30,969 bases of DNA, taken from NCBI GenBank assembly GCA_965205505.1, contig CBDBHB010000003.1, forward strand, positions 1 to 30,969, given 5' to 3'. This DNA comes from Acidobacteriota bacterium (GTDB lineage: Bacteria; Acidobacteriota; UBA890; WLXD01). A program made the translations under genes and the position numbers. The notes below the pieces were generated by a model, which was not told the origin of the DNA, ran no database searches, and worked only from the letters and a program-made list of their open reading frames with translations. Positions 142 through 20,355 of this stretch are shown piece by piece (position 1 is the first letter of the stretch; the number at the start of each line of letters is the position of its first letter).

Positions 142-845
142 TTCAGGTCGCTTCGTCGGCTCATGATGCGTTCGAGGCGGTCGACTTCATCTCCGCGAGC
201 AGCCCGTCTCCGGTACTCCTCACTCCCGAGGGCGTCGAGCTTCGCGCAATCCTCTTCTGTCAGATAGGTGGGATCGCCGACCTGCAGTGCGTGCCACTGG
301 ATGAACGCCTGCTCCTCCATCGCATACGTGCGGAAGGCAGCCTCCTTGACCGACGCCCCGACCGTGATCGTGCCGTGGTTACGGAGCCACCATGCCCTGG
401 CAATCGGAAGCCTTGAACTGGCGCTCGACGAGGCGCGCCAACTCTGGCGTGGTGACCGTGACGTAGGGCACATGCGGGACATTAGCCCCCAGGTAGACAT
501 AGTAATCAGCGAACATGGGGCGTAGGTCGTGGCCTGCCGAACACAGCGCGATGGTCATCTTCGGATGAGCGTGGAAGACAGCGTTCACGTCGGGGCGCGC
601 GCGATAGACGTAGAGGTGCATCAGGACTTCTGAAGAGGGCCGGAAATCGCCCGAGACGATGTTCCCTGATGCAACCGAGATGCATGGGTAGTGCTCTTGC
701 CGCGCGTCTTCGAGCGAGAATCCGCTCGGAGAGATCCACATGTGGTCAGCCTCGCGAGCGCTGACGTTACCACCTGCTCCCGTCACGAGGCCGGAGCTCA
801 CCAGCTGGCGGGCCGATCAATCATCTCTGTGACGATCTGGGTCAT
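138..845 (-). CDS. Class II aldolase/adducin family protein (FucA/AraD-like), two apparent frameshifts
   Basis: Motifs GGNVSAR, RPSSE..MH, VFHAHP lie in ORF 379-801 and LRNHG in ORF 138-500. The N-terminus MTQIVTEMID starts at ATG 845. Single-base indels near 815 and 390 join the pieces. Confidence 0.85.
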
Positions 846-850
846 GGAAG

Positions 851-2345: not shown

Positions 2346-2405
2346 CAGGGTGATGCTCTAGCAGGCCGTGGTGGAAGTGTGGCGCCACACTTCCAGCACG
2401 GCCTG

Positions 2406-3946: not shown

Positions 3947-4038
3947 GGATCCTCCCCGCCGATGCGCGGCGCGTCGGCCCTGGACGATAGCATGCCTTCA
4001 ATTCCCGATAATTGGCGCCCCGATATAGAGTCAACAGC

Positions 4039-5016: not shown

Positions 5017-5290
5017 TGGCCTGTAACAGATGATCGTTGCATATCGCAGATGGGATTTGCGGGTGAGATCAAGGCGCGGCGAGGAAGGCGATGCAGTGGG
5101 CATCGTCGACGAGGCGCAACGCCGATATCGCCCGCAACTGCCCATCTGTCCGCAGGATGGCGGCGAAATCGGCCCGTCTGCGGCGTTGCTCCTCCTCCAA
5201 GATGCGCAAACATCGTCTCGTCGTCGCGCCTGGCATCCGGACCCATTTCGCCACCACGATATGCAACGATCATCTCTTACAGGTCACTAG
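5013..5290. mobile_element. MITE, 278 bp, with 34-bp terminal inverted repeats and CTAG ends
   Basis: 5013-5046 (ctagtggcctgtaacagatgatcgttgcatatcg) matches the reverse complement of 5257-5290 at 32/34. There is no credible ORF inside, and a partial copy occurs at 18678. Confidence 0.85.
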
Positions 5291-6636
5291 TGTCCTGTAA
5301 CAACACGTAGCGACTCGTCCAGCGCCGCGACGAAGGCGTCGATCTCGTCGGTGCCCATCGGCGTCGACAGGCATCCGATCACCCCGCGTTGCCCCAGCAG
5401 GATGCCGTGGCTCAGCATCTCCACCACCACTTTCGCCTGCCGCGGCTCGACGGCAGTGGCCGCGACGAAGCCACGAAAATCGCGAATCGGAGCCTCGCTG
5501 AACAGCAGCCCGAACAGCGACCCGCGCCCGGTGACCTGGTGTGCGATTCCGCGCCGACCGACTGTCTCGGCAACCGCCGCTCGAAGTCGATCCCCGAGAG
5601 ACTCCAGCCGCTCGTAGGCCTCGCGCGTCATCTGCCGCATGGTCTCGTAGCCCGCCACCATGGTGACCGGGTTGCCGTTGTAGGTACCGCCGTGATGGAC
5701 CTTCTCACCCGAGCGGTGATCGAACACGTCCATCACCGACTTCTTTCCCATGATGGCACCGACTGGGAAGCCGCCGCCGATGATCTTGCCGAGGGAGACG
5801 AGGTCGGGCTCGATGCCGTGGGCGACGCAGGCGCCCTGGTAGCTAACCCGGAACGACAGCACCTCGTCGCAGATCAGCAGGATGCCGTGCTTCTCGGTGA
5901 TCTCACGGAGAAACTCGACGAAACTCTGGTCCGGCGCGACGAATCCGAGTGCCGCCGGAAGCGGATCGAAAACGACCGCCGCCAGGTTGTCGGCGTTGTC
6001 GCCGATGAGCGCCCGACACACCTCGATATCATTCCATGGGAGCGTGACGACCTCGTCGAGCAGGCTGCGCGCCATGCTCGGCTCCAGCGTCGTGCTGGGA
6101 CGCTGCGGATCGCCCCAGTTGTGCGGTCGCGAGCTATCGCTTGCCTGAGCATAGTCGTAGACGCCGTGATAACAGCCCTCGAACTTGGCGACCTTGGAAC
6201 GCCCGGTGGCCGCCCGCGCAGCGCGGATCGTCAACAGCACACCTTCGCTGCCCGAGTTCGCGAAGCGAATCTGCTCCATGCCCGGTACGCGTTCGACGAG
6301 CAGCTCGGCCAGTCGAATGTCGGCCTCCGTAGGCATCGAGAACGCCGTCCCCCGACCGACCACCTGGCGCACTGCTTCGGTGACGACCGGGTCGGCGTGG
6401 CCCCGAATCAACGCCGTGTAGTTGTTGATGAAGTCGATGCGCTCGTCGCCCTCCACGTCGGTCACGCGGCAGCCCTGGCCGCTGGCCGCGTACGCCGGAT
6501 ACGGATCCATCACCAGCGTGTGGCGGCTGTTGCCACCGGGCATGACGTGTAGGGCGCGCTCGTAGAGCTCCTTGGAGCGCGACGTGTCTTCAAGGTAGCG
6601 GGCCGTTGACCGTGACTGCTTTTCAGTAGTCGCCAT
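5287..6636 (-). CDS. Class III PLP aminotransferase, glutamate-1-semialdehyde aminomutase-like (HemL paralogue)
   Basis: MPGGNSR, RFANSGSE, KFEGCYHG, LICDEV, LGKIIGGGFPVG (PLP Lys) and HGGTYNGNP. ATG 6636 follows a GGAG RBS. Confidence 0.9.
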   Translation of the reverse strand: MATTEKQSRSTARYLEDTSRSKELYERALHVMPGGNSRHTLVMDPYPAYAASGQGCRVTDVEGDERIDFINNYTALIRGHADPVVTEAVRQVVGRGTAFSMPTEADIRLAELLVERVPGMEQIRFANSGSEGVLLTIRAARAATGRSKVAKFEGCYHGVYDYAQASDSSRPHNWGDPQRPSTTLEPSMARSLLDEVVTLPWNDIEVCRALIGDNADNLAAVVFDPLPAALGFVAPDQSFVEFLREITEKHGILLICDEVLSFRVSYQGACVAHGIEPDLVSLGKIIGGGFPVGAIMGKKSVMDVFDHRSGEKVHHGGTYNGNPVTMVAGYETMRQMTREAYERLESLGDRLRAAVAETVGRRGIAHQVTGRGSLFGLLFSEAPIRDFRGFVAATAVEPRQAKVVVEMLSHGILLGQRGVIGCLSTPMGTDEIDAFVAALDESLRVVTGH

Positions 6637-6904
6637 CGTTTCTCCGGCCCCGGACTCTGAGCGCAGCCGCGATTTGGTGGACAATAGGCTCACAGTGCTC
6701 GATCGGCGACCGTCAGCTTACCGCGATCACGACCCGCGGCTGGGCTTGATCGCCACCGGTTGGTTCGGCAGCTAAAAAACATCGTGGTAGCCGAGTGGCT
6801 ACCTTGCACATGATCCGAGGCCGCCCGACCGCAAAAGTCAACCGAAGATCCGTTCGAGTGGTATGAGAGTCCGCAAAGTCAGGAACGTCGCAGCGTGAGG
6901 GACC

Positions 6905-7420
6905 ATGGTCGAGATCCGCCTCGAACGAGAGAACGACATCTTCGCGATTCAGACTGTCAACCGACTCGCCTTCGGCCAGACCGCCGAGGCAGACATCGTC
7001 GAAGCGCTTCGCGATGGGGCGCCAAACGTGCTTTCGTTCGTGGCACTCACCGCCGGAGAAGTGGTCGGGCATGTCCTGTTCTCTCCGGTGTCGATCCAAC
7101 ACCGGCGCGGGGCTACTGAGGGCCTCGGCCTCGGTCCCATGTCCGTTCTGCCGGCCCATCAGAATCGAGGGATCGGGGCTCAGCTTGTTGAGCACGCGCT
7201 TGCGGAAGTGCGGGCCGCAGGCTGGCCTTATGTCGTCGTGTTGGGTCACCCGCGTTACTATCCGCGCTTCGGATTCGTTCGCGCGTCCGAGTACGGGGTG
7301 CGCAGTCAATGGGAGGGTATCCCTGACGACGTCTTCATGATCCTGCCCCTGGACGCTGGCCGCATCAAGCAACTTCGAGGAGTGGCCCGCTACCGCCCCG
7401 AGTTCGGAGATCACCTGTGA
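6905..7420 (+). CDS. GNAT N-acetyltransferase (YhbS-like)
   Basis: VVGHVLFS, LGPMSVLPAHQNRGIG (acetyl-CoA motif A) and VLGHPRYYPRFGF. GAGG RBS. Confidence 0.92.
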   Translation: MVEIRLERENDIFAIQTVNRLAFGQTAEADIVEALRDGAPNVLSFVALTAGEVVGHVLFSPVSIQHRRGATEGLGLGPMSVLPAHQNRGIGAQLVEHALAEVRAAGWPYVVVLGHPRYYPRFGFVRASEYGVRSQWEGIPDDVFMILPLDAGRIKQLRGVARYRPEFGDHL

Positions 7421-8655
7421 GCAACATGCCGCTATCCCGCCGCCGCTTCTTGCAGACCGCCGGGGCAGCAGGCGTATGGGTTCCAACGTCAGTGAAGGGG
7501 CGTAGTTCAGCCGAGATGCGCTCGATGGCCTCAGAGGGTGCGATACAAGCCGACGTATCCAAATGGGAGCTCGATACGCCGGCACTATGCGTCGATCTCG
7601 ATGCGCTCGAAGCCAACCTGGCCACGTGTCAGCAGACGGTCTCGCGCAACGGTATCGCCAGCCGTCCTCATGCCAAGACGCACAAGTGCCCGGCGATCGC
7701 CCGGCTGCAGCTGGAGGGCGGGTCGGTTGGCATCTGCACCGCCAAGGTGAGTGAGGCCGAGGTCATGTTCGAGCACGGGATCGAGCAGATCTTGATGACG
7801 ACGACCAATGTAACGCCGTTCAAGATCGCCCGGGCGATGAGCCTGAGGAAGCTGTGCTCGGAGTTCGTCCAGGCCACGGACACGCCCGAGAATGCCCGCG
7901 ACCTTTCGGAGGCAGCGCGGGCGGCCAGCATCACCGCCGATGTGGTGGTCGACGTTGACCCGAGTACGCATCGCACAGGTATTAGCGCAGGGCAGCCCGC
8001 TCTCGAGCTGGCGCAGCTGGTCGATACCCTGCCCGGGCTCCGGCTGCGCGGCATGCTGTGCTATGACGGCGGCTCACAACACAAGGTTGGCTTCGAGGTG
8101 CGCCGGGAGCAGACCCTCGAGCGTCTCGCGGCGGCCGCCGATACATTCATGATGTTGCAGCGCTCCGGTTTGAGCACCGAGATCTTCAGCGGTGGCGGCA
8201 CCGGTACCTACAACATCGACCACGAGACCTCCGGCCTGACCGACGTGCAGGTGGGCAGCTACATCTTCATGGACGCGCAGTACCTGGCGATCGGCGGGGC
8301 TCATGACCCACACGTGTACTCAGACTTCCAGCCCTCGCTGACCATTCTCGCGACGGTGCTCAACGACCAGTACGAAGGCCAGGTCACCACCGACGCGGGG
8401 GCCAAGGCGTGCACCATCAATCAGCCATGGCCCATCGTGAAGGGCGAGTCCGGAATGGAGTATCGTTCCGGATCCGACGAGTTCGGCGTGCTCCGCTACG
8501 ACGACCCCTCACGTACCTACAGCGTCGGCGACAAGCTGGAGCTGATCGTGTCGCACTGTGACCCGGTGGTGAATCTCTACGATCAGATGTACGCCATTCG
8601 TGGCGATCGCGTCGACGCCATCTGGCGCGTCGCGGCACGAGGAATGTCAACGTAG
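7417..8655 (+). CDS. Tat-exported DSD1/D-threonine aldolase-family PLP enzyme (alanine racemase fold)
   Basis: Tat motif SRRRFL. DTPAL, RPHAKTHKC (PLP Lys), SGGGTGT, QVGSYIFMD and HCDPVVNLYD. GTGA overlap with the GNAT stop. Confidence 0.9.
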   Translation: MSNMPLSRRRFLQTAGAAGVWVPTSVKGRSSAEMRSMASEGAIQADVSKWELDTPALCVDLDALEANLATCQQTVSRNGIASRPHAKTHKCPAIARLQLEGGSVGICTAKVSEAEVMFEHGIEQILMTTTNVTPFKIARAMSLRKLCSEFVQATDTPENARDLSEAARAASITADVVVDVDPSTHRTGISAGQPALELAQLVDTLPGLRLRGMLCYDGGSQHKVGFEVRREQTLERLAAAADTFMMLQRSGLSTEIFSGGGTGTYNIDHETSGLTDVQVGSYIFMDAQYLAIGGAHDPHVYSDFQPSLTILATVLNDQYEGQVTTDAGAKACTINQPWPIVKGESGMEYRSGSDEFGVLRYDDPSRTYSVGDKLELIVSHCDPVVNLYDQMYAIRGDRVDAIWRVAARGMST

Positions 8656-8686
8656 CAAAGCCTGGACCGCCAGCGGGAGTCGTCGA

Positions 8687-9199
8687 ATGGCACTCAAATA
8701 CGAAGTCGGCCAGAGGTTCCCCGACCTCAGCCTCACGGATGACCGCGGCAACGTGATGTCGATCGCCGAGGTCGCTGAGCGTCGGCCGCTGTTTCTCGCC
8801 TTCTACCGTGGCCCTTGGTGACCGAAGTGCCAGCGTCAGCTGTCGGAGCTGGTCCAGTTCCAAAGCGCCGCCGCAGTAGCTTATTGCCGGTTGGCAGTCG
8901 TCTCGGTCGACCCCCCCGAGGTGCAAGCCGCCCTCAAAGCTGAGCTCGGAGCACACTTCCCGTTCCTGAGCGACGCGGAACGGCGGCTTACCGACGAGCT
9001 CGGCATCCGCGAGACAACCGATTCCCGACACGGTCCACTACCGGTCCCCTTCACCTTCGCACTGCTCCCAGACCTGACCATCCACCGGTTGTTCAACGGC
9101 TGGTACTTCGTCGGGCGACCGACTCCTGAGGAGCTGCGCCTCACGGCGCGCGAGATGATCGGCAGAATCGTGCCGGACGCTGACTTCGCGGGAGAGTAG
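8687..9199 (+). CDS. AhpC/TSA redoxin-like selenoprotein, 170 aa, Sec45 in a U-P-K-C motif
   Basis: ORFs 8600-8821 and 8891-9199 share a frame. Reading through TGA 8819-8821 gives FYRGPW-U-PKCQRQLSEL...VVSVD...FPFLSD. GGGAG RBS before ATG 8687, and a hairpin follows the TGA. Confidence 0.88.
8836..8852 (+). promoter_or_regulatory. Candidate bacterial SECIS hairpin for the redoxin UGA
   Basis: (t)cagct-gtcgg-agctg(g). The loop starts with G, 21 nt after the UGA. Confidence 0.6.
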
Positions 9200-9262
9200 G
9201 GCGGACCGTGGGCTCAGGCAGCGTGACCCATGCGGGTCTATCGTTGGCCGGTGAACAAAACT

Positions 9263-9305
9263 ACTACGACTGTAGTTGACTAATTACTATGCTCGTAGTA
9301 TATAT
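9263..9305 (+). promoter_or_regulatory. AT-rich promoter with two ACTAY-N4-GTAGT palindromes (BlaI/MecI/CopY-like operator)
   Basis: actac-gact-gtagt at 9263-9276 and actat-gctc-gtagt at 9286-9299 bracket a TTGACT -35-like hexamer at 9276-9281. Confidence 0.6.
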
Positions 9306-9345
9306 ACCTTGAATCATTCCCATCTCCCTGAGGAAGGCTGCCTGC

Positions 9346-9894
9346 GTGAGCGAATCCAAGCTCGACACCCAATTCCAAAGCCAGGGAAGCCTGGTGCCTC
9401 CTGGCCCAGTCGGCCGGCTGGTTCGACTCGGTTGGGGAGTGGTCTGCGCGTACGGCGTGTGGTCGATTGCGACGACGACGCAGTACCACACGGGCTACCA
9501 GATACCGTCGGCATGGACCTGGTGGGCCACTACAGTGCTGTTGCTCGTCGTCACACCCTACGTGGTGAATATCGGCCTGGGTGTGAGCTGGCGCGCCTGG
9601 CCACGCTATGCCGTCGGCCTGTGGATCGCCGCCGGCGTGGCCGTGAGCTGGGCCCTGACCGGAGCGTTCTGGTCGCCCGCGCTCGGCTGGTCGGTAGCCG
9701 GATGGCAACTGCTGACACTGGGATGGCTAGGCTTTTCATTCCTTCTGTCTACCGTGATCGGCACCCCTGGATGCGAGATGCGGGCGATTTCCCATCTTTG
9801 GTCGCTGATCACCGGTCGTGCCCGGCGCGAGCACTATTGCCCCGGTCATCTAGATAACGTGGACCGCTGGGAAGCCCGGGGAGGATCGTCATGA
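9346..9894 (+). CDS. Membrane protein with a G-x-P-G-C-E motif (DUF6410-like, from memory)
   Basis: About four TM segments, GTPGCEMRAI and a C-terminal EHYCPG. AGGAAGG RBS. ATGA coupling to the next gene. Confidence 0.75.
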   Translation: MSESKLDTQFQSQGSLVPPGPVGRLVRLGWGVVCAYGVWSIATTTQYHTGYQIPSAWTWWATTVLLLVVTPYVVNIGLGVSWRAWPRYAVGLWIAAGVAVSWALTGAFWSPALGWSVAGWQLLTLGWLGFSFLLSTVIGTPGCEMRAISHLWSLITGRARREHYCPGHLDNVDRWEARGGSS

Positions 9895-10379
9895 GCACGC
9901 TGGAGTCACAGAGGATCTCCACCCTGCCCCACGCCACGCCGATCAGTCGCCTGCTCCGCGCCGCACTCGGTTTGGGCATGGTCGGCATGGTGGCGCCGGC
10001 GTTGCAAGAAGCATCTTGGCAATCGCGGCTGGAAGTGTTGGGGGGGGGGGTCGTTGTCGGCCTGATGGCCCTCTACACCGTGGTGCACCTGGTGGTCAGC
10101 CGCTACTTCGGGTGGCTCCACCCTTGGATTGGGGCCGCCATCGCCGTCACCCCGGCGTTCCTGGTGTTCCTGAGTGGCGGCGTCTTCGCTGCCGGCGCGG
10201 TCGTATTCATCGGCGCTTCCTTGCTGCTGATCGCCGCGCTCGGACATCCGGGCTGCGAGGTTCTGGCGTTTCCGGCGCTCGTGCTTGGCCGGCGCACCCA
10301 CCTCGCCTGCATCCTCTTGTCGCCGATCGATTGGGTCGAGGGCAAGGTCATGGCTTTGGTGCGCGGTACCCGGTCCTGA
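9891..10379 (+). CDS. Second membrane protein with a G-x-P-G-C-E motif (paralogue of 9346-9894)
   Basis: About four TM segments, GHPGCEVLAFP and THLACILLSPIDWVE. GGAGG RBS. Confidence 0.78.
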   Translation: MSTLESQRISTLPHATPISRLLRAALGLGMVGMVAPALQEASWQSRLEVLGGGVVVGLMALYTVVHLVVSRYFGWLHPWIGAAIAVTPAFLVFLSGGVFAAGAVVFIGASLLLIAALGHPGCEVLAFPALVLGRRTHLACILLSPIDWVEGKVMALVRGTRS

Positions 10380-10522
10380 GGACGAGCACCCGATCCTGGA
10401 GCATCGAGAACCGACGAATAGACGCACGTCGCGCCACTCTGGAGGCGTTGAGCCCGTCGTAGCTTCTCGGTAGCCTGATCGTGCTCCGACAACCCCACTC
10501 CGCAATCAAACGAGGCCAGACA

Positions 10523-11672
10523 GTGCGTCGACGGATCGGCGGCACGGCGACCCTGGTGGTCGGCATCGCCGTGTTGGCAACCCCGAGCTGCACATTCGCG
10601 CCACAAGAAGGGGCTGCGGCGGCCTCGTATCCGAGCAGCGGCTCATCTTCATCCCCCGTTGCGTCGATCGCGGACAGGGTGCTCGCCGCTGCCGTGGAGG
10701 CAAGCAGGAATGCCGTCGGACACCAAGAGGTCGACCTCGGCGGCGGTCATCGCTTCGTTCTGGTGCCCGCCGGGCCCTTTCCCATGGGGTCTGACGAGGG
10801 GCTCGAGGGCGAGCGACCGGTGCCCACGGTCGAGCTCGACGACTACTGGATCGCCAAGTTCCCGGTGACCGTGGGGCAGTTTCGCGCCTTCGTCGAGGCC
10901 ACCGACTACGTCACCGACGCCGAACGGGGCCAAGGCTCGTGGCAATGGACGGGCGAGATTCCGGGGGACGGCGAACGTGGTGATCCCTGGGAGCCGCGGC
11001 TGGACGGCGGCTGGAACAACATCTACTTCGAGCAAGCCAACGACCACGCGGTTGGCAGCGTCAGCTGGAACGACGCGCAAGTATTCTGCGCCTGGCTGTC
11101 GGACCAACTCGGCCTCCCTGTCGTCTTGCCGACCGAGGCTCAATGGGAGAAGGCGGCGCGCGGCACCGAAGGCCTGCGCTTCCCCTGGGGAAACGAGGCT
11201 CCTGATGGGCGCCGGGCCAACTACGCCGACGTCAACTTCATCGGCAAGTACGGGCCGCACACCCGGCGCCCAGACGCCAAGGTCGACGACGGCTATGTGG
11301 AGACCTCGCCGGTCGACGCCTACGACCCAGGCCAATCGCCATACGGTATTTACGACATGGCCGGCAACCTGGGCGAGTGAGTCTACGACATCTACGACAG
11401 GGCGTACTACGCAAACTCCCCGGACCGAAACCCGAGCGGGCCAGAGCGGCCGCCCGCAGTCCCCGACGAGCGCATCGACCGCGTCAACCGCGGCGGCTCT
11501 TGGGTCGATTGGGCAGGCGTCGACGCCGACGGACGCGTTGCCGCGCAGGGAGGGCACAGCATCCGTGCCGCGGCGCGCACCGGCGACGAGCAGAATTCGA
11601 GCGACGACCATATGGGTTTCCGCATCGCGATCGATGGTCTACGCACCGCCGCTGCCCCGGCGGTCGCAGAAA
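10523..11672 (+). CDS. FGE-sulfatase (SUMF1/EgtB/PvdO-like) domain, probable lipoprotein, interrupted by TGA 11378-11380. Probably the N-terminal half of a fusion with the following MBL domain.
   Basis: FPMGS, FPVTVGQF, VSWNDA, LPTEAQWEKAARG and YDMAGNLGE. The frame continues past the TGA as VYDIYD...RVNRGGSW...MGFRIA. Confidence 0.8.
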
Positions 11673-12485
11673 CCGGATCTCACTGGCGTGGAGATCGTCA
11701 CCCACCCGGTTTCCGGCAACATCTACATGCTCGAGGCCAGCGGCGAAGTCGCCGGCAACATCGCCGTCTCGGCTGGGCCCGACGGCATCCTCATCGTCGA
11801 CGATCAGTGGGCCGAGCTGACCGGAGCCATCACCGACGCGCTGAGCGCAATCGACGGCGGCGCGTTGCGTTTCATCATCAACACCCACCATCACGACGAT
11901 CACAGCGATGGCAACGCCAACCTGGTGCGCGGCAGCGACGCGTTGGTGGTCGCCCACGAGCGTACTCGCGAGCGTCTGCTGGCCAAGGACAGCGCCCACT
12001 GGCCGACGATCACCTTCAACGAGACGCTCTCGGTGCATTTCAACGGCGAGGAGGTGCGCGCCTTGGCGATCCCCGGCGGCCACACCGACAACGACGTCGT
12101 CGTGTTCTTCACCGAATCGAACGTCGTGCACATGGGAGATCTGTTCAACTCCGGTACATCGAGCTTCCCGACCGCCGATCTCCGGTCGGGCGGCAACGCG
12201 CTGGCGATGCTGACCAACCTCGACGCCCTGCTGCCGATGATTCCCGACGGCGCCGCGGTCATCCCCGGGCACGGGCCACTATCCGACAAGTCGGAGCTGC
12301 ACCGCGTGCGCAAGATGCTCGACGACACGATTACCTTGGTGCGAACCGGGAAGGCGGCGGGCCGCAGCCTCGACGAGATCGTTGCGGCCGGACTCGGTCG
12401 CGAGTACGAGAGCTGGGGCTATGGCTATATGTCCGCGGACGGCTGGATCGAGATGATCTACCGCAGTCTCGACGGCGAACCGTAG
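11673..12485 (+). CDS. Metallo-beta-lactamase-fold (cyclase-like) domain, probable C-terminal half of the fusion
   Basis: GNIAVSAGPDGILIVD, INTHHHDDHSDGN, GHTDND, HMGDLF and IPGHG. It lacks its own RBS/start before the domain boundary and joins the FGE frame after removing one A near 11670. Confidence 0.85.
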   Translation, partial: PDLTGVEIVTHPVSGNIYMLEASGEVAGNIAVSAGPDGILIVDDQWAELTGAITDALSAIDGGALRFIINTHHHDDHSDGNANLVRGSDALVVAHERTRERLLAKDSAHWPTITFNETLSVHFNGEEVRALAIPGGHTDNDVVVFFTESNVVHMGDLFNSGTSSFPTADLRSGGNALAMLTNLDALLPMIPDGAAVIPGHGPLSDKSELHRVRKMLDDTITLVRTGKAAGRSLDEIVAAGLGREYESWGYGYMSADGWIEMIYRSLDGEP

Positions 12486-12578
12486 CGTGGCTTGGACTGG
12501 CGCTCCCGGTTCCCAACCGAGCCTCGAACGGTTGACTTGGGCGGAGGGACGGCGCACTTGATTCGGAGACATTGGAGA

Positions 12579-13202
12579 ATGCGAGATTCCGGCCAGCTGC
12601 TCTTGATCGCGTTGTTGGGGCTCATGATTGCGAGCCCGGCCTTGGCCGACGACGAAGCCGGCAATGTTCCCCATGTCGCCGCTGGGCCCTATGGCCGTTG
12701 TTACGCCAAGTCTGTTCCTCGGCATATCCGCGATCCTGAGGACCAACCGAGACAGCAAGGGGTGACCAAGGTCTACCGGGTCGGAGATGCCGAGGACGTT
12801 CTGGTTAACGTCTACGACTGGTTCAGCCAACGACTGTTTGTCAGGTGCAGCCCGACAGACGACATCGTCGTGGTCCGCGCCGGGCCATGGCAACGCGGCC
12901 ACGACCCGCAGGAAGATCACCTCGCCATTGCCTTCTATCGGGGCGGCAAGCTGATCAAGAGCTACTCGACCCTGGACATCGCCGGAGGCGAGGAAGCGAA
13001 CGACGGCGGGCTTTCCAAGTACAGGAATGTCTCCGCCTCCGTGTCGCACTACACCGTGTTCGCGTCGGGGCCGGAAAGCATCAAGACAACAACGGCGGAC
13101 GGGCCGGTGTTCACCGAGAGTTGGGAAATCGTAGCGACCACCATCGACGGGCGCTCGCTGACCTTCGGCTTGGAACCCGGAGAGGTTCGACAGGGGCAGT
13201 AA
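12579..13202 (+). CDS. Secreted hypothetical protein
   Basis: GGAG RBS, signal peptide LLLIALLGLMIASPALA/DDE, and a globular-looking mature region. Confidence 0.75.
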   Translation: MRDSGQLLLIALLGLMIASPALADDEAGNVPHVAAGPYGRCYAKSVPRHIRDPEDQPRQQGVTKVYRVGDAEDVLVNVYDWFSQRLFVRCSPTDDIVVVRAGPWQRGHDPQEDHLAIAFYRGGKLIKSYSTLDIAGGEEANDGGLSKYRNVSASVSHYTVFASGPESIKTTTADGPVFTESWEIVATTIDGRSLTFGLEPGEVRQGQ

Positions 13203-13435
13203 CGGCTTTGACGGCAAATCCGTCCACCGACCGAAGCCATTCCCACCGCCCAGCCGGTCAGATCTTGGGCGACCCGGTCGAGCAGCAGCGGCCACCGTGG
13301 AATGAAGGGAGCGAACGGTGAACACTGAACACTACTGACACCGAACGATCTCGGAATTCGGCGACAGCGTCCTTTTCTTACTTAGCAGGGTGTTCCCTGC
13401 TAGAAGGAGCACCACATCCGATCTGGAGTTCAGGC

Positions 13436-16078
13436 ATGAGCGACGACGCGACGCGTTCGGGTAGCGCGAAGGGTGGCTACACGGGAAGCTTCGAAAAGGT
13501 GCAAGCAGCGGAGCTCGAGTACCTGAAAAGGTGCCGCGCCGCGAACAAGCTGCCCGAACCTAAGCCCGATCGCTCCGACCTGGATGGAATTTGCCTATCG
13601 GGAGGCGGCATCCGCTCTGCGACTTTCTGTCTCGGGGTGATGCAACGACTGATCGGTGAGAACAAGTTCAAGCAACTCGACTACTTGAGCACGGTCTCCG
13701 GCGGCGGCTACATCGGCTCTTGCCTGAGCTCACTGCTCACCGGCGATCGCAGGCGCGACGGTAGGGCTCCAGACAGCCCGGTAGATAATCCCGAAGACCC
13801 ACTGCCCGGCGTGGAGCCGGACAACTCGCCGTTCGTGAGGCTCAACCGCGACGATGAAGACGATCTCGAGCCGCGGCTTGGGGTGCGGCAGCAGATCCAT
13901 CATCTGCGCACTCACAGCGAGTACCTGGCACCTCGCCACAAGCTGCTGAGCTTCGACGTCCAGCGTGCGATCGGCGCCTTTATTCTGGGCATGATCCATA
14001 ATTTTCTGCTCATCGGCGCTGCGTTCGTAGCGCTTGTAGCGACGACGCACCTCGTGCTCAGCATTGCCGACCCCGGGCTGAGTGCGCTCGGCTCACTCGA
14101 AAAAGTGGAGGTGCCGCCGCTGCCGGACGACTGCTGCCGGTCCGCGCTGACGACCCGAGCCGCCACCGTCATGCAGCATGTGGCCGCATGGTGGGCACAG
14201 CGGCTGTTGCCGTTGCTCGAGGCGGCCTATGGCGACTTCTTCGAGCACGGCCACACCCGATACTACGCGTTTATCGGCGCAGTCTGGGTGTTCGTTTGGA
14301 GAGTTCGCGGTGCGTCGATTCTCAGGAAATTAAGGAAGGAAGAGGCGCCGAACTTCGGCCAGCTGTCGGGCTGGACGTACGAGGAACAACTGACGTCGCG
14401 CTTCCTGACCGCGTTCAACGTTCTGTCGGTGGCCGCGCCGCTGGCTCTCGTCGTCTGGGCCTGCTGGCGGAGCTCGCACGAGGACGGTTCGCTCTACACA
14501 CTGCTGATCCCCGCTGCCTTCTCGCTCGGCGGCGGCGGCGTAGCCTATGCGCTCAACTGGTGGGAGTCGATGCGCGAGCGCCAGATCGCCAGTGGCGATC
14601 GCAGCTCGGCGCAGCAGGGAGCGGCGCGACGCTCCATCGTGCATGCCATCCAGGGAGCGTCGGTCTACGGCCTGGTTTCGGCCTTCGTGATCCCGGCGGC
14701 GATCATCGTCCTGATGGCGCTCAAGAACCTCACTTTCGAGTTCTTCGGCTCGCTCGTCGTGCTCGCCGTTCTGTACCGCTTTGCCGCACGACAAGCCGAC
14801 ACTACCAACGAAGGCGGATGGCTAGGCAGGATGGCCGGCCGAATGGTCAAGCCGCTGACCAACGCCGGGGTGATCGTAGCGCTTGTGCTGACGTTTGCCG
14901 TCGTATCGCGACAGCTCATCGAGAGAATCCCCGACGACAGCTTCTACCTTGGCCACGCGCTGGCCTTCCTCGTGGCGGTTGCCGTGCTCTTCGTTCTCGG
15001 AACCTCCATCGACTCGAACCGCGTCTCGCTGCACACCTTCTACCGTGATCGCCTCTCGGAGGCCTACTTGACGACGACGGCGCGCCGCAAGCGCAAGGAG
15101 CGCTGCGCCGGCCAAGGGCGGCCGCTCAATGTGATCCGCGACGACGACGAGCTGTTGCTCGAGGACCTCGGCAAGGACAACGGGCGCGGTCCGTACCACC
15201 TCATCGTGGCAGCGCTCAATCTGAGCGGTTCGCGCGAGCTCACGCGGCGCAACTTCCTGTCGGATCACTTCATCTTCTCGCGCGACTACATCGGCTCCGA
15301 TGTCACCGGCTACGTCAAGACCTCGATCTACCGCGAGCGCGGCGTGCTCGGCGTGAAGTTGGCCCGCGCAATGACGATCTCGGCCGCAGCGGCCGGGTCG
15401 GCAGTCGGGTATCACACGTTCTGGGGACAGGCGTTTCTTGCGACCCTCTTCAACCTACGGCTCGGGCACTGGATGGAGAACCCGTGGAGTTACTGCGCGA
15501 CCGACAAGCCCGCCCGGGGCCGATTCCGATTCTGGCCCTGGTGGCTGGGAATCGAGCTGCTGGCCCTGACCACGGCAAGGCGCCGAATGGTGAACCTCTC
15601 GGACGGTGGCCACACGGGCGACAACCTCGGGTTGATGCCGCTGCTACGCAGGCGTTGCAGGCGCATCGTTGTCTGCGATGGCGAGGCCGACGGTGGCTTC
15701 AGCTTCCCGTCGTTCAACAACGCAATCCGTATGGCGTGGATCGAGCGCAACATTCGTATCGAGATCGACCTCGCCGACGTGCAAGAGGCTCACGACACGC
15801 GCTACGGGCACAAGGCCAGCAAGGCGAGCGTGGTGCAGGGAGTGATCCATTACCCGGCCGACTCTAACGGTGCTACCCCACCGGCGGGCACGCTGATCTA
15901 TGTCAAGGCGTCGATCCCCGACGCGAGCGAAGTGCCGGCGCACGTGCACAACTACGCGAAGGAGAACGCCGACTTCCCGCACCAGACGACGATCGACCAG
16001 TTCTTCGACGACGCGCAATTCGAGGCCTACCGCGCCTTGGGACACCATGTAGCGGGAGAGGCTGCAAGCCTCCTGTGA
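13436..16078 (+). CDS. Patatin/cPLA2-like phospholipase with a large multi-TM insertion
   Basis: GICLSGGGIRSA oxyanion loop, DYLSTVSGG nucleophile and LSDGGH catalytic Asp. Many hydrophobic helices lie between the Ser and Asp halves. Confidence 0.88.
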   Translation: MSDDATRSGSAKGGYTGSFEKVQAAELEYLKRCRAANKLPEPKPDRSDLDGICLSGGGIRSATFCLGVMQRLIGENKFKQLDYLSTVSGGGYIGSCLSSLLTGDRRRDGRAPDSPVDNPEDPLPGVEPDNSPFVRLNRDDEDDLEPRLGVRQQIHHLRTHSEYLAPRHKLLSFDVQRAIGAFILGMIHNFLLIGAAFVALVATTHLVLSIADPGLSALGSLEKVEVPPLPDDCCRSALTTRAATVMQHVAAWWAQRLLPLLEAAYGDFFEHGHTRYYAFIGAVWVFVWRVRGASILRKLRKEEAPNFGQLSGWTYEEQLTSRFLTAFNVLSVAAPLALVVWACWRSSHEDGSLYTLLIPAAFSLGGGGVAYALNWWESMRERQIASGDRSSAQQGAARRSIVHAIQGASVYGLVSAFVIPAAIIVLMALKNLTFEFFGSLVVLAVLYRFAARQADTTNEGGWLGRMAGRMVKPLTNAGVIVALVLTFAVVSRQLIERIPDDSFYLGHALAFLVAVAVLFVLGTSIDSNRVSLHTFYRDRLSEAYLTTTARRKRKERCAGQGRPLNVIRDDDELLLEDLGKDNGRGPYHLIVAALNLSGSRELTRRNFLSDHFIFSRDYIGSDVTGYVKTSIYRERGVLGVKLARAMTISAAAAGSAVGYHTFWGQAFLATLFNLRLGHWMENPWSYCATDKPARGRFRFWPWWLGIELLALTTARRRMVNLSDGGHTGDNLGLMPLLRRRCRRIVVCDGEADGGFSFPSFNNAIRMAWIERNIRIEIDLADVQEAHDTRYGHKASKASVVQGVIHYPADSNGATPPAGTLIYVKASIPDASEVPAHVHNYAKENADFPHQTTIDQFFDDAQFEAYRALGHHVAGEAASLL

Positions 16079-16356
16079 TCAGGTGAGAGCGCGTCGAACA
16101 CCTCGTGGCGGATGGTGCAGAAGGACCATTCGGGTCTTTCAAGGGCTGCGCCGAGCGGAACAAACCTCGGTGCTCCTCTGGTCCGCATTGCCCTCAGCTC
16201 CTATAGTCATTGTCGATCTTCTTCTCGAGGGTCTGGCGCCAGATTCGAGGTGAACCGCGAGCCGAAGCGCGGCTGTCCTCCGGCATAGCGGCTCCGACTG
16301 GCGACCTCGTCATGGATAACCAGCGCGACTCTGCTGCTCTGACCTAGGAGGATTCG

Positions 16357-17637
16357 ATGGGCCGCTCATCCGTAAGCCGCCGTGAGTTCGCTCGCCTCTT
16401 TGCCGTCGGCGGGTCGGCCGCGATGCTCGGGCACCCGAGCCTCGAGGGCTTTCAGCCCGCGGCGCTCTCGCCTCGCTCCCTGCGCGCGGGAGCGGTCAAC
16501 TGGGACGCCGTTCGGTCGCAGTTTCTGATGCCGCCCGACGTATCTGTTTTGAACGCCGCGAACCTCTGCCCTTCCCCTGCGAAGGTCTTGGAGACGGTCG
16601 TCGAGTACACCGAACGGCTGGATCGCGAGCCGTTCCCGAGCTACCGGAGCGAGATCGTCGGCGCCAAGGAACGGACGCGCCAGCTGCTGGCCGGATTCCT
16701 ACGCGTGACACCCGAAGAGATCCTCATCACGAGAAACACGAGCGAAGCGAACAACTGGGTGTCGAACGGGCTCGACCTCGGGCCGGGCGACGAGGTCCTT
16801 ATCTTCTCGGACAACCATCCCAGCAACAACCAGGCATGGAAGGCCAAGGCGGAGCGGTTCGGCTACACGGTACGGGAAGTCGAGCAGATCAATCCGCACC
16901 CCGGATTCGAGTACTACCTCGAGGCGTTCGAGCGTGCCATCACCGCGAACACGCGCGTGATGACCTTCATGCACCAGAGCAACACAGCCGGAGACCTCTT
17001 CCCCGCCAAGGAGCTCTGCGCGCTGGCCCGGGAACGGGGGGTCATCTCATTGATTGATGGGGCGCAATCGTTCGGCCTGCTGGACGTGGACCTGTCCGAC
17101 ATCCAGCCGGACTTCTACTCGGGCAGCGCGCACAAATGGCCGTGCGGCCCGAAGGAGACCGGGGTGCTGTACGTAAACGCCCGTGTTCAGGACCGGTTTT
17201 GGCCCTCGAGCTACAGCGCCTACTCGGGACAGTCGGGCATCTCGCGCACCCATGAAGGGATGGGTCAGCGCGACACGCCGGCCCTGCACACCTTCGGCAC
17301 GCAGATCGAGTTCCTCCAGGCGATCGGTCAGAGCCAGATCGAGGCCCGGAGCCGAGACCTGGCCAGCCAGCTCATCGAAGGCCTGAACCGGATCGAAGGC
17401 GTGCACATGTGGACGCCGGCTGAGCCCGCGCTACGCGCGGCGGTGGTCACGTTCCGGCCGGGGGAGCTCGATGCCCGTCGGGTTCTCGGAGCACTCGAAG
17501 AGGACGGCATCGTGGCCGCGTCCCGCGGTGGGTCGGACCGTGGTGGAATCCGTTTCTCGCCGCACTTCTACAACATGGAAGTAGACATCGAGCGCGCAAT
17601 CGACGCGATCGGTCGCTACATGCGGAAGGGGCTGTAG
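16357..17637 (+). CDS. Tat-exported class V PLP aminotransferase (CefD/cysteine desulfurase-like fold)
   Basis: SRREF Tat motif, TRNTSEA, DHPSN-like DNHPSN, IDGAQ, SAHKW (PLP Lys) and IRFSPHFYN. AGGAGG RBS. Confidence 0.9.
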   Translation: MGRSSVSRREFARLFAVGGSAAMLGHPSLEGFQPAALSPRSLRAGAVNWDAVRSQFLMPPDVSVLNAANLCPSPAKVLETVVEYTERLDREPFPSYRSEIVGAKERTRQLLAGFLRVTPEEILITRNTSEANNWVSNGLDLGPGDEVLIFSDNHPSNNQAWKAKAERFGYTVREVEQINPHPGFEYYLEAFERAITANTRVMTFMHQSNTAGDLFPAKELCALARERGVISLIDGAQSFGLLDVDLSDIQPDFYSGSAHKWPCGPKETGVLYVNARVQDRFWPSSYSAYSGQSGISRTHEGMGQRDTPALHTFGTQIEFLQAIGQSQIEARSRDLASQLIEGLNRIEGVHMWTPAEPALRAAVVTFRPGELDARRVLGALEEDGIVAASRGGSDRGGIRFSPHFYNMEVDIERAIDAIGRYMRKGL

Positions 17638-17741
17638 CGCCCCGGCCTCGCCCATGTAGCATCGACCTCGGCAGACGCCACTTCCTCGCGTTCGGTCAGC
17701 CCCTCGATGAAGACGATCATCGGTCGTTGGTCAGTGATTCC

Positions 17742-18665
17742 TCAGCGCGCACGTGGAAAGACGATGAAATCGTCGTGCCTTTCGAGCCTCGGTTCGTTCC
17801 CCATCGCCGCTAGGGCGTTGACGAGCTCGACAAGTTGGCTGAGCTGCAGCTCGAGGCCATGCTCGCTTGGATGCTCCGTCGATTGCTGGGGGAAATCCAC
17901 CCCCGATTGCGAGCTCATCTCGATGTGCGTACCCAGAACATGGCGGACTTCCCTGTCCTCCGCGAAGGCCACCAATCGCTGGATACTTGCCCTGTACGCG
18001 GGCAGCTCCGATGTTGAAAAGTACAGTCGCCCCGGGTAGAAGGAATCACCTGTGAAGAGCAGCCCGGCGCGCCGATCATACAGCGCGATGTGGGCGTCCT
18101 GATGACCAGGAAGCGGGATGACGTCGACGACACGCCCGCCTCCGAGATCGAATTCGACAATTTGCGTCGGCCAGGTCTCGATTCCGAAGAAGGATTGCAC
18201 GGCTGACCGCGTCCGCCCGACGACCTTGGTGTTCGGCCGTGTGGAAAACTGACTGTCGCCGGCGAAGTGATCTCCGTGCGAGTGGGAATGACTTACGATC
18301 AGTTCGATGGTGGTTCGGTCGTGCGTGTCGAGCCATCGGGAAATGATGTCGTCGACAATTGCCCTGATTGGAATGCTTCCGGCACCAGTATCCTGCATCA
18401 GCACTCGGTCTTCTCCGAAGATGAGATAGATGAAAGGTGCCTCGAAATCTGTGCACAGCGACTGCCGTAGGATGAACAGATCATCGTTGTAGGCGTGGAT
18501 CTGCACAGGTCGTTCGGCGTCACAGTCGGTCCCATCTATCCAGTGTTCCGGGAAAGAGCCGTCCTCCAAGGTGCCACCCACTGCACGCGTGTCCCCGCCA
18601 ACATGCGCCGCCAGCAACATGGCAGGGATTATTGCCACGAGGCTTCTCAACCCAACGATGTTCAC
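17742..18665 (-). CDS. Secreted MBL-fold metallo-hydrolase
   Basis: Signal peptide, DTGAG, SHSHSHGDH, LPGHQ, FTGDSFYPG and LGTH. Confidence 0.88.
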   Translation of the reverse strand: MNIVGLRSLVAIIPAMLLAAHVGGDTRAVGGTLEDGSFPEHWIDGTDCDAERPVQIHAYNDDLFILRQSLCTDFEAPFIYLIFGEDRVLMQDTGAGSIPIRAIVDDIISRWLDTHDRTTIELIVSHSHSHGDHFAGDSQFSTRPNTKVVGRTRSAVQSFFGIETWPTQIVEFDLGGGRVVDVIPLPGHQDAHIALYDRRAGLLFTGDSFYPGRLYFSTSELPAYRASIQRLVAFAEDREVRHVLGTHIEMSSQSGVDFPQQSTEHPSEHGLELQLSQLVELVNALAAMGNEPRLERHDDFIVFPRAR

Positions 18666-18677
18666 CGCTTCACCCCT

Positions 18678-18773
18678 CTAGTGGCCTGTAACAGATGATC
18701 GTTGCATTTCGCCGCCATCCTTTGAACAGTTGGGCAGTTGTGGGCGATATCGGCGTTGCGCCTCGTTGACGAT
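18678..18773. mobile_element. Internally deleted, truncated second copy of the MITE
   Basis: 18678-18707 is identical to the first 30 nt of the 5013 TIR. 18706-18773 closely matches the reverse complement of 5102-5169. Confidence 0.85.
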
Positions 18774-18868
18774 TTCGACACCATGCAGCGATTCTATGAG
18801 GAGGTCGTCGGCTTAGAGATACTGCGACGGTTTCTCGCGGCGGTGTTCTTCCGCATCGCCGAAGCCGG
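18768..18868 (+). pseudogene. Remnant of a VOC/glyoxalase gene
   Basis: DDFDTMQRFYEEVVGLEILRRF..AVFFRIAE resembles the first VOC helix/strand motif (D....FY..VLGL). It has no proper start or C-terminus. Confidence 0.6.
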
Positions 18869-19158
18869 CGCCGTGGGCCTCCTCGAGTACCGGCGGGTCG
18901 AGCCCAGGAACCTCCAGGAGTCTCAACGCGGCTTCGATCACCGCCAGCTGCCGCTCCGGGGAATCAGGCGCATCGAGCGGGTAGCCGTGGGGAAACGGAA
19001 CCAATAGCGCTCGGGGTAGCCTGACGGCCTCGACCACGCGACGCAACAGCTGAATCGCAACGGTACAGATACCGCGGCGCTCCAGCTCTGCCGCGACCAG
19101 GCACACGGCCTGGTTGCACATCGGTCACACCGGAACCAGCAGCGCGACATCGACTCGT
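18813..19158 (-). pseudogene. GrdB/PrdB (reductase selenoprotein B)-like gene, 5'-truncated, Sec at TGA 19127-19125
   Basis: In-frame extension of ORF 18813-19121 reads VDVALLVPV-U-PMCNQAVCLVAAELERRGICTV...PRALLVPFPHGYPL, followed by a SECIS-like hairpin. The N-terminal domain is absent. Confidence 0.8.
19096..19114 (-). promoter_or_regulatory. Candidate SECIS hairpin for the GrdB-like UGA
   Basis: accaggc-cgtgt-gcctggt, a perfect 7-bp stem with its loop 18 nt after the UGA. Confidence 0.7.
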
Positions 19159-19215
19159 CTAGGGTGTCGTCGACGCCGAGCTGGTATCTTGACGGATCCT
19201 GAACCGGAGGAACCC

Positions 19216-19659
19216 ATGAACAGGACTAAGTCGTGCACAGCGTTCATGCTGTCGCTCGGGCTTGTCGGCATCGCTTGCCAGGGTCAGTCGGCCCCGCCGG
19301 CCGAGGAAACGCCGATGAACGAGCCCGCCGTCAACACCCCTGCGGAAGCTCAACAGCTCACTGGCGAGGCGCTCGCCAGTGCGCTCCACAACGCCGACGT
19401 CTTCTTGCTCGACGTCCGCGAGCCCGACGAGCTCGAAGAGCTGGGCACGGTGGAGGGCTATACCAACATACCGATCGGTGAACTGGACGGCCGCCTCGAC
19501 GAGCTACCGAGGGATCGTCCGATCCTCACCGCTTGAAACGGCGGTGGTCGAGCCGCGCGTGCCGCGGCTTTGTTGGCAGAGAACGGTTTCGAGGTGTACG
19601 GCTTCTGCGGATTGAGAGACTACGAGGGCGACAAGATCTTTCCTGAGGCGAGTTCCTGA
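19216..19659 (+). CDS. Lipoprotein rhodanese-like selenoprotein, 147 aa, Sec107
   Basis: GGAGG RBS, lipobox VGIAC, LLDVREPDE and NIPIGEL. Readthrough gives PILTA-U-NGGGRAARAAALLAENGF, matching the rhodanese active loop C-x-x-G-x-R. The stop at 19659 lies 6 nt before the next ATG. Confidence 0.88.
19551..19569 (+). promoter_or_regulatory. Candidate SECIS hairpin for the rhodanese UGA
   Basis: agccgcg-cgtgc-cgcggct, a perfect 7-bp stem with its loop 22 nt after the UGA. Confidence 0.7.
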
Positions 19660-19665
19660 CGAGCT

Positions 19666-20355
19666 ATGCCCCGTCTGCTCCTGGCGATTCTCCTGGCTGT
19701 GGTGGCGGCGCCCGCGCCCGGCCAGAGGGTCGTACCCGTTCACGAGGAGCCGCGTCACCATCTTGTCCGCGATGGAGACGACTTCCGCGTTCTCGATATT
19801 CGAGTCGCGTCGGGCGACACGACGCTCTTCCACACGCACGATGCACCGATCGCCTATGTAGCCATCGATGCCTCCGCAGTAAACACACAGCCACTCGACG
19901 GCGAGTGGGGAGATACCGACGCTTCTGCTGACCCTGCCTGGAGGCCGGGACAGGTCACCTGGAACCTGAGCTACGCCACCGAGCCGTTGACTCACCGCGT
20001 CACCACAGTGGGCCCGAGCCTTTTCCGTTTGATGGGAATCATCAACTACGGGCCGGGCGCAGCCGATGGCTCCTTGTCGGCCCCGGCGATGATCGGGAGT
20101 ATCGAAGCAGAGAGCCGCTGGTTCCGCGTTTCTCGATTGACGCTGGAACCCGGTCAACGCGTTCTGTGGGACCGTTCCGCTCGCCCAGTGGTTGCTGTAG
20201 TGGTCACCGAAGGACTCGTGGTGGCGTCGCAGCGCGGCCGTACGGCCGAAGCGGCAGTGCGCGGTGGGTTCTTCGTCCAGGACACAGAAGCGCAATACGA
20301 GCTTCGCAACCCAGGCCCCGCTCCCGTGAGCTTGGCGTTCGTGGAAGTACGGTGA
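19666..20355 (+). CDS. Secreted cupin-like hypothetical protein
   Basis: Signal peptide, then VPVHEEPRHHLV...GDTTLFHTHD and two beta-barrel-like halves ending in LRNPG..PVSLAFVEV. Confidence 0.72.
   Translation: MPRLLLAILLAVVAAPAPGQRVVPVHEEPRHHLVRDGDDFRVLDIRVASGDTTLFHTHDAPIAYVAIDASAVNTQPLDGEWGDTDASADPAWRPGQVTWNLSYATEPLTHRVTTVGPSLFRLMGIINYGPGAADGSLSAPAMIGSIEAESRWFRVSRLTLEPGQRVLWDRSARPVVAVVVTEGLVVASQRGRTAEAAVRGGFFVQDTEAQYELRNPGPAPVSLAFVEVR

Follow-up and report, generated by a model that had tools for sequence, protein, structure and literature searches.

The general model of the bacterial selenocysteine insertion sequence (bSECIS), as excerpted from a 2026 review (PMC13188914), comprises a hairpin located 16-37 nt from the UGA codon. 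Its stem is 4-16 bp and its loop 3-9 nt long, one of the first two loop nucleotides is a G, mostly followed by G or U, and its minimum free energy (MFE) is -7.5 kcal/mol or lower. Among the known selenoproteins listed in the same excerpt are Prx-like thiol:disulfide oxidoreductases with UxxC or UxxU motifs containing one or two selenocysteine (Sec, U) residues as well as several 'forms' of rhodanese-related sulfurtransferases, and UxxU forms are also reported in Global Ocean Sampling (GOS) data in the excerpted part of a further study (PMC2398784). Relatives of these systems, and of the GrdB/PrdB proteins of glycine and D-proline reductases, were here analysed in a stretch of 30,969 nt, termed the window, which is the whole contig C3 (G+C content about 64%) of a metagenome-assembled genome (MAG) of the Acidobacteriota (assembly of 5.98 Mb in 9 contigs, 96% complete). 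The explanation favoured here, with a probability of roughly 0.85, is that the window carries two working selenoprotein genes, one for an AhpC/TSA-like oxidoreductase (gene 1) and one for a rhodanese (gene 2), together with a dead GrdB/PrdB-like gene (gene 3), all of them with SECIS elements of the ordinary bacterial kind.

The three in-frame TGA codons were found at 8819-8821 (+), 19534-19536 (+) and 19127-19125 (-), as claimed in an earlier note on this DNA. The open reading frame (ORF) readings around them are PWUPKC for gene 1 (in longer context ...FYRGPWUPKCQ...), TAUNGGGR for gene 2 (...PILTAUNGGGRAAR...) and VPVUPMC for gene 3 (...VDVALLVPVUPMCNQ...). In agreement with the note, which had placed them at the catalytic-Cys position of three different folds, U aligns with Cys or Sec of homologues in the AhpC/TSA-like, the rhodanese and the GrdB/PrdB-like sequence. 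A loss of homologue conservation downstream of the TGA had been named there as an observation that would speak against recoding; the conservation of the protein persists 3' of the UGA in all three alignments.

The stretch was found in runs of about ten studies, and the Logan contigs of four runs from four studies were compared with it over positions 8600-19800. Gene 1 is covered by record 9 of run X2, record 17 of X5 and record 25 of X8, all with zero differences, and the region 18.7-19.8 kb is covered by record 5 of X1, record 14 of X2, record 24 of X5 and, from 19182 onwards, record 32 of X8. Among the differences listed (8 further ones were not displayed) the three TGAs are unchanged in the contigs of the four runs. 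Due to the use of contigs rather than raw reads rare variants would be missed, and starts, strands and expression are unreadable from such contigs.

A profile search of the genome for the Sec machinery recovered selA (516.6 bits), selB (354.6 bits) and selD (322.8 bits), each above its curated cut-off, and the gene for tRNA-Sec (selC; 68.2 bits), which ARAGORN calls as SeC with the anticodon tca. Since all four components are present, the objection foreseen in the earlier note, a genome lacking the Sec machinery, does not apply. Moreover, of the 61 genomes sampled across the phylum, 51 have a selB above the cut-off, among them all 10 of the same family; the 61-genome tallies include one genome flagged as unpublished (G047), on which the conclusions do not depend.

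Hairpins with a 5-nt loop follow all three TGAs as had been described, the loops GUCGG, CGUGC and CGUGU of genes 1, 2 and 3 starting after 20, 21 and 17 nt, respectively. As the chance criterion, a 5-nt loop starting after 17-22 nt, a G in loop positions 1-2 and a minimum stem length were demanded, and 33,246 out-of-frame TGAs in coding regions and 1,284 true TGA stops of the same genome served as controls. For stems of at least 5, 6 and 7 bp, such hairpins follow 1.58%, 0.52% and 0.22% of the out-of-frame TGAs and 1.32%, 0.39% and 0.16% of the true stops, respectively; the hairpins after the three TGAs thus exceed chance. Additionally, a hairpin starting 15-25 nt downstream, whose stem has 6 bp or more and whose loop contains GU, was detected at 14 of 19 predicted Sec sites in comparison to 1.46% of the 33,246 controls. 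The 19 sites tested consist of 16 from the genome-wide scan described below and the three of the window, and the count is 12 of 16 when three sites picked from a hairpin-filtered list are left out. The loops at the predicted Sec sites of this genome (GUC, GGUCU, CGUGU, CGUGC, GGUCG, AGUUC, CGGGU, GGU and GUU) are variations on an exposed G-U; CGUGU recurs at two DUF3179 genes (DUF3179a and DUF3179c) and CGUGC at an AhpC gene (AhpC b).

Compared with the general bSECIS model, the hairpins of the window are no different in kind. The hairpins of genes 2 and 3 and one of two overlapping hairpins of gene 1, termed H2, satisfy every constraint of the model, and only the other hairpin of gene 1, H1, misses the energy threshold, by 0.4 kcal/mol. 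The 'lineage-specific SECIS' proposed in the earlier note could not be upheld, since the general model fits and the rhodanese hairpin with its CGUGC loop is identical in MAGs of the Acidimicrobiia. Instead, each hairpin is inherited with its own gene family, in the case of the rhodanese across phyla.

Gene 2 (19216..19659, +) is predicted to encode a single-domain rhodanese-like sulfurtransferase of 147 aa whose active-site loop, TAUNGGGR, contains U107, and a GGAGG motif is located 5 nt 5' of its ATG. The Pfam Rhodanese family is matched with 43.3 bits and an E-value of 5.4e-11 (above the cut-off of 22.2), and in the loop UNGGGR the Sec is followed by xxGxR. The Sec codon (TGA, 19534..19536, +) falls on the catalytic Cys of the C-x-x-G-x-R loop (C-x-[SG]-G-x-R) of more distant Cys homologues; loci L071-L078 of this contig scan lie off the active-site pattern and were left out. 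All 19 matches in relatives with an E-value of 2e-19 or lower, which come from the genus, family, order and phylum, contain exactly one TGA. An alignment of ten orthologues shows no variation between PRDRPILTA and NGGGRAARAAALL, the U included. The gene is full length relative to its orthologues and shows synonymous variants only (19482, 19593) in the other samples.

The SECIS hairpin of gene 2 (19550..19570, +; GAGCCGCG-[CGUGC]-CGCGGCUU, 8-bp stem, loop after 21 nt, -12.8 kcal/mol) is common to 18 distinct Sec-type sequences, among them MAGs labelled Acidimicrobiia (Actinomycetota), Terriglobia, Luteitalea and Vicinamibacterales, and its CGUGC loop is invariant. In these 18 sequences 95.8% of the cells are paired and in three pairs both partners have changed, a score reached by 0 of 500 shuffles; slid controls are 36-63% paired. 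In one group GCCGCG/CGCGGC is replaced by GCUGCC/GGCAGC through synonymous changes of Ala codons. Like the described rhodanese-like selenoproteins (PF00581, UxxG forms), gene 2 has a single rhodanese domain in which Sec occupies the catalytic loop position and precedes xxG (UNGG in this case); it differs from them in its score of 24.1 bits against NF041203 (rhodanese-related (seleno)protein), below the curated cut-off of 115, and in a signal- or lipoprotein-like N-terminal segment. This hydrophobic segment (19216-19290) ends in LVGIAC/Q (...LGLVGIACQ...; LVGVACQ in orthologues) and suggests a lipoprotein or exported enzyme, akin to periplasmic rhodaneses. Gene 2 is an intact predicted selenoprotein gene of an already known family.

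Gene 1 (8687..9199, +) is predicted to encode an AhpC/TSA (Prx-like, SelL-related) thiol:disulfide oxidoreductase of 170 aa with U45 in PWUPKC (UxxC), and a GGGAG Shine-Dalgarno-like motif is located 8 nt 5' of its ATG. Pfam matches are AhpC-TSA with 67.5 bits and 1.3e-18 (above the cut-off of 26) and Redoxin with 2.3e-14; against the NCBIfam model SelL_rel_redox (NF040769) 38.7 bits are reached, below the curated cut-off of 120. The Sec codon (TGA, 8819..8821, +) lies on the conserved Cys of the WCPKE/D family. Among 80 metagenome relatives the aligned motif reads CPKE in 70, CPKD in 4, UPKU in 5 and UPKC in 1, so that Cys in 74 and U in 6 of them put U45 on the conserved redox Cys of the family. 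The TGA is kept in the orthologues of the congeners G004, G003 and G002 (94, 75 and 73% identity, respectively), relative to orthologues the gene is full length, and it is a further intact predicted selenoprotein gene of a known family. Seven of the ten close orthologues, the window included, are of the UxxU type, with two TGAs 9 nt apart in PWUPKU (L025 of G003, L026 of G002, L177-L180 and L182), and three are of the UxxC type (window, G004 and L181).

With the Prx-like thiol:disulfide oxidoreductase selenoproteins (PF00578) and SelL, gene 1 shares the AhpC/TSA fold, the U as first residue of UxxC/UxxU and the SECIS inside the ORF. In contrast to these systems, its Cys relatives are single-Cys WCPKE/D proteins and its conserved hairpin is farther than usual from the first UGA. 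SelL reportedly decodes two Sec residues with one SECIS, a finding attributed to Shchedrina and coworkers in 2007. The two candidate hairpins of gene 1 overlap. H1, chosen in the earlier note, occupies 8835..8853 (+) with (GU)CAGCU-[GUCGG]-AGCUG(GU), a loop after 20 nt and -7.1 kcal/mol; H2, considered here as the candidate SECIS, occupies 8845..8861 (+) with GGAGCUG-[GUC]-CAGUUCC, a loop after 30 nt and -7.6 kcal/mol. The central C-G pair of H1 is formed in one of nine distinct orthologue sequences, that of the window, whereas H2 is 100% paired in nine of nine with one compensatory GC-to-AU change. H2 is also the apex of the RNAfold MFE structure after the TGA of gene 1; in the window it has a G.U where the other orthologues have A-U. 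The distance between the first UGA and the start of H2 is 23 nt, and from the second codon position it is 14 nt. The choice of H1 in the earlier note is accordingly not supported, and H2 is the conserved hairpin of gene 1.

Gene 3 (18813..19155, -) covers the C-terminal ~113 of ~250 residues of a GrdB/PrdB-like selenoprotein and is truncated at its 5' end. The former Sec codon (TGA, 19125..19127, -) lies in the motif VPVUPxC, which is common to 11 homologues, and 27 of the 28 matches listed carry the TGA. The SECIS hairpin kept in the relic (19096..19114, -; ACCAGGC-[CGUGU]-GCCUGGU, 7-bp stem, loop after 17 nt, -11.0 kcal/mol) belongs to a family hairpin that in 12 sequences has 95.2% paired cells and three pairs in which both partners have changed; 0 of 500 shuffles attain this score. 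NCBIfam matches are weak and located around U (PrdB, 26 bits against a cut-off of 300; TIGR01918, 12.8 against 65.45), and the ORF has no Pfam match to GRDB (PF07355). As in GrdB/PrdB (PF07355, TIGR04483), the UxxC motif stands in the same local context, and full-length relatives of ~250 aa match the PF07355 or PrdB models; in contrast to the glycine and D-proline reductases, the window holds only the C-terminal third, and no grdA, prdA or other reductase partners were found nearby. A full-length GrdB-like paralogue is located at C8:733153 (PF07355 39.3 bits, cut-off 22).

All 11 homologous loci encode proteins of ~250 aa with a conserved N-terminal part of 150-165 aa (MGxxxEFS...YRWRRIDPVPW...) before VPVUPxC. 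In the window homology begins only at VDVALLVPVU and the N-terminal domain is absent. In the comparison with the congener G001, positions 18879-19155 and 19157-19659 of the window align to 1525-1801 and 2324-2827, a spacing from which it follows that 522 nt were lost at 19155/19157; with them the start and the first ~150 codons of gene 3 are gone. The junction is bridged without gaps by contigs of three other runs. The open frame now extends to an ATG at 19217, its 5' part (the first 20 codons) being antisense to the rhodanese leader, and inspection of the sequence revealed no Shine-Dalgarno motif ahead of this ATG. The 30 codons 5' of the TGA have a coding score of -14.7 in comparison to a coding median of +12.8. 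Furthermore, all four runs show 19013 G>A, which converts CGA (R69, a conserved Arg in the motif RPPRAL) to TGA, and one run adds C51Y, in a neighbourhood where the adjacent rhodanese gene shows two synonymous variants only. In the closest relative, G004 (nucleotide identity 96%), homology does not extend to the left of 19170, where a multi-copy repeat of ~280 nt is present instead. With start and full domain architecture lacking and the SECIS itself intact, gene 3 is best described as a decaying, broken leftover of a GrdB/PrdB-like selenoprotein gene. The 'three genes' of the earlier note thus reduce to two, as the 522-nt deletion, the lost N-terminal domain and the nonsense change in four of four runs make the third ORF a 5'-truncated relic.

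The genes between the three loci encode alanine-racemase-N/D-Ser dehydratase-like, FGE-sulfatase-like, patatin-like, class-V aminotransferase and MBL-fold proteins. They are functionally unrelated, and the '11 kb cluster' is therefore a matter of proximity and not an operon.

For a genome-wide count, a codon log-odds model derived from 1,671 long ORFs was used to scan for in-frame TGAs that are flanked on either side by coding signal, and 45 candidates were sent to Pfam. A domain covers the TGA in 15 of the 45: three DUF3179 proteins, five AhpC/TSA proteins, two molybdopterin (FdhA-type) proteins, two CMD/AhpD-like proteins, one HMA protein with UxxU, one ArsM-like methyltransferase and one deiodinase-like redoxin (below the Pfam cut-off). 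Two more were accepted on motif or homology, namely a two-domain rhodanese with YUGGGAR, for which the second Pfam stretch was not displayed, and the GrdB-like paralogue, with a Pfam match ending 3 residues before U. Together with genes 1 and 2, the genome contains at least 19 predicted selenoprotein genes, and this number is a lower bound because the scan was lossy (a local filter dropped the rhodanese gene at one stage). The term 'selenoprotein-rich' used in the earlier note is justified, given a threshold of 6 in the excerpted literature (PMC5029168). The families of all 19 genes are contained in the table of known prokaryotic selenoproteins in the excerpt of the 2026 review (PMC13188914).

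The other 28 of the 45 candidates were rejected or left open. Some of them arise from adjacent genes that share a frame (recA upstream, HigB/HigA, sigma/anti-sigma, flavin reductase before Ndh-SelD, AcnX, PEP hydrolase/UPF0261, transposase); in others, which are still possible, the domain falls short of the TGA (NHL-repeat at C9:1675087, MBL-rhodanese at C9:223983, alpha/beta hydrolase at C9:1022616 and others), and the remaining ones have no Pfam family. The SelD of this genome (C1:10593-13370, L155) has its AIRS domains fused behind a Pyr_redox_2 domain (NADH-dehydrogenase-like) and contains Cys rather than Sec in ...MRCAGCGSK...; the preceding TGA terminates the separate flavin reductase gene. 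In the HMA-domain protein (C9:1783158-1784387, L150) two TGAs fall within the metal-binding CxxC motif (GMTUGLU), and a UxxU family to which it may belong ('metal-binding protein', NF041115) is listed in the excerpt of PMC13188914.

From the codons, the homology and the machinery genes, together with the covarying hairpins, the truncation and the population variants, we infer a conventional course of events. SelD would make selenophosphate, SelA would convert Ser-tRNA(Sec), and SelB would bring the tRNA to the ribosome on binding a hairpin inside the ORF, 10-25 nt past the UGA, whose apical loop exposes G-U. Gene 1 would then yield a Prx-like (AhpC/TSA, SelL-related) oxidoreductase with a UxxC redox motif, and gene 2 a small, probably exported rhodanese-type sulfurtransferase in which Sec replaces the catalytic Cys. 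In gene 3 the deletion would have taken the promoter together with the start and the first ~150 codons, the UGA and SECIS persisting during decay. The likeness of the loops (CGUGC, CGUGU, GUC) would reflect what SelB recognises in all bacteria.

Several observations weigh against this explanation. No RNA run is among the 24 runs listed for the stretch. RNAfold z-scores of the 62 nt after each TGA, in comparison to shuffles, are non-significant (-0.82, +0.76 and -1.03); the signal lies in the local hairpin and not in overall stability. An Rfam scan of the whole window with E-values up to 10 returned no SECIS or other relevant family and two chance-level matches only. The covariation in gene 2 comes largely from one clade and thus from few independent events. 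For H2 of gene 1, 59 of 500 shuffles equal the observed value and the support is mostly invariance, the little variation among the orthologues making for weak statistics; its loop, 30 nt past the UGA, is farther away than at the other 18 predicted sites (16-24 nt), and its energy barely clears the threshold of the model (-7.6 against -7.5 kcal/mol). Finally, the frame of the relic is free of internal stops downstream of the TGA in the window itself, and a short product from ATG 19217 might be made. Three functional hidden selenoprotein genes with a SECIS architecture peculiar to the lineage would be in line with the similar 5-nt loops after all three TGAs and with the recurrence of CGUGC and CGUGU elsewhere in the genome. 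This is nevertheless improbable, as gene 3 is without its start and N-terminal ~150 residues and carries a nonsense variant in four of four other samples, the same rhodanese hairpin and loop occur in MAGs of the Acidimicrobiia, Terriglobia and Vicinamibacterales, the N-G-U loop, distance and stem length are all within the general bSECIS model, and H1 is not conserved. That nothing is recoded at all, the TGAs being ordinary stops, sequencing errors or pseudogene lesions, could be argued from an in-frame TGA of the same contig that is not Sec-like (11378, at a Trp position, TGG in the allele on contig C4) and from the single-base indels by which the C3 and C4 copies differ. Against it stand the persistence of the TGAs in different genera, orders and phyla, with the protein strongly conserved after them, the hairpin covariation, the Sec machinery and the same letters in four independent studies, and so it can hardly be credited.

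Two alternatives concern single genes within the favoured explanation of two working genes and one relic. Gene 1 might be decoded here via H1, completed by a synonymous GAA-to-GAG change, with H2 as the ancestral element of the UxxU form; the SECIS would thereby come to lie at the customary distance (13-15 nt) from the one UGA that is left. H1 is fully paired in the window only, and the same change turns an A-U of H2 into the weaker G.U; H1 begins 13-15 nt past the first UGA and H2 14 nt past the second codon position, where 7 of 10 orthologues have UGA; and AhpC-like paralogues have a strong hairpin at the position of H1. Yet G004 and L181 are also UxxC with H1 broken and H2 intact, from which it follows that H2 alone can serve the first UGA, and H1, at -7.1 kcal/mol under the threshold of the model, rests on one substitution in one genome. 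Decoding via H1 is accordingly regarded as unlikely, and slightly less likely still is the idea that gene 1 shows a SECIS in the course of relocating, in which the H2 of the UxxU orthologues would serve two UGAs and, after loss of one Sec to Cys, the GAA-to-GAG change would have completed H1. For the relic, expression from ATG 19217 as a selenoprotein of 134 aa could be proposed because the frame is open from 19217 to 18813 except for the TGA and the SECIS is intact. This is very improbable in view of the missing Shine-Dalgarno motif, the 20 codons antisense to the rhodanese leader, the upstream coding score of -14.7, the loss of the conserved N-terminal domain, the TGA at R69 in four of four other samples with C51Y in one, and the loss of the entire piece in the closest relative G004.

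Further in-frame TGAs without Cys context were observed. The FGE-sulfatase-like gene (10481-~11700, domain residues 92-383) contains one at 11378-11380 (+) in ...GNLGE[TGA]VYD...; the copy on C4, which is 99.67% identical, has TGG (Trp), and record 18 of X5 and record 27 of X8 carry TGA with 0 differences. A nonsense polymorphism, or a leaky UGA, seems a better explanation of this codon than Sec. The gene for malate synthase G (C9:1159131, +; L174) has an in-frame TGA at residue 509 within the TIM-barrel domain (residues 360-594), a position which we take to be normally Trp. Neither of these two TGAs is followed by a hairpin of more than 4 bp.

Positions 1-11667 of the window are repeated reverse-complemented at C4:11657-1 with 99.67% identity, 26 substitutions and 12 gap positions, among them six single-base indels and an indel of 6 nt; the two copies do not differ in gene 1. 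Since other samples mix the C3 and C4 versions, the copies look like alleles of one locus that was assembled twice. The selA gene was detected twice with equal scores and in opposite orientation (C6:10376-11734, +, and C6:191379-192737, -), and other TGA contexts also occur in identical pairs (C6:7970 with C6:195134; C7:421736 with C9:268508). These pairs indicate that the assembly seems to hold duplicated or fold-back stretches, and copy numbers need care. A repeat of ~280 nt at 5013-5296 has more than 50 near-identical copies in the genome, and a piece of 100 nt at 18674-18773, just downstream of the relic, matches C9:1521818. There the short-read contigs of all four runs break and the depth rises about tenfold. 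In G004 a ~280-nt multi-copy repeat stands directly upstream of the rhodanese gene. The repeat is probably an element similar to miniature inverted-repeat transposable elements (MITE-like) that is tied to rearrangements at the locus.

For the specialist, the window offers a dead selenoprotein gene that retains its UGA and an intact SECIS, and a switch between UxxU and UxxC inside one orthologue group with a single conserved hairpin. If the relocation of the SECIS in gene 1 were true, with SelB acting on H1 or on the mutually exclusive hairpins in turn, it would be a natural example of the repositioning of a Sec signal as the number of Sec codons changes. Since none of the families is new and decoding relies on a canonical signal, the gain lies in annotation and in the ecology of selenium use and not in mechanism. 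As gene callers cut at TGA, ordinary annotation misses the selenoproteome of this acidobacterial lineage. Only one cultured genome of the Acidobacteriota is listed in the deep-Sep work, with 3 selenoprotein genes (PMC12013277), and 'Acidobacter' was not found in the main text of the two selenoproteome surveys searched. At least 19 genes in comparison to 3, together with this silence of the surveys, point to a selenoprotein-rich clade outside the phyla that are usually named.

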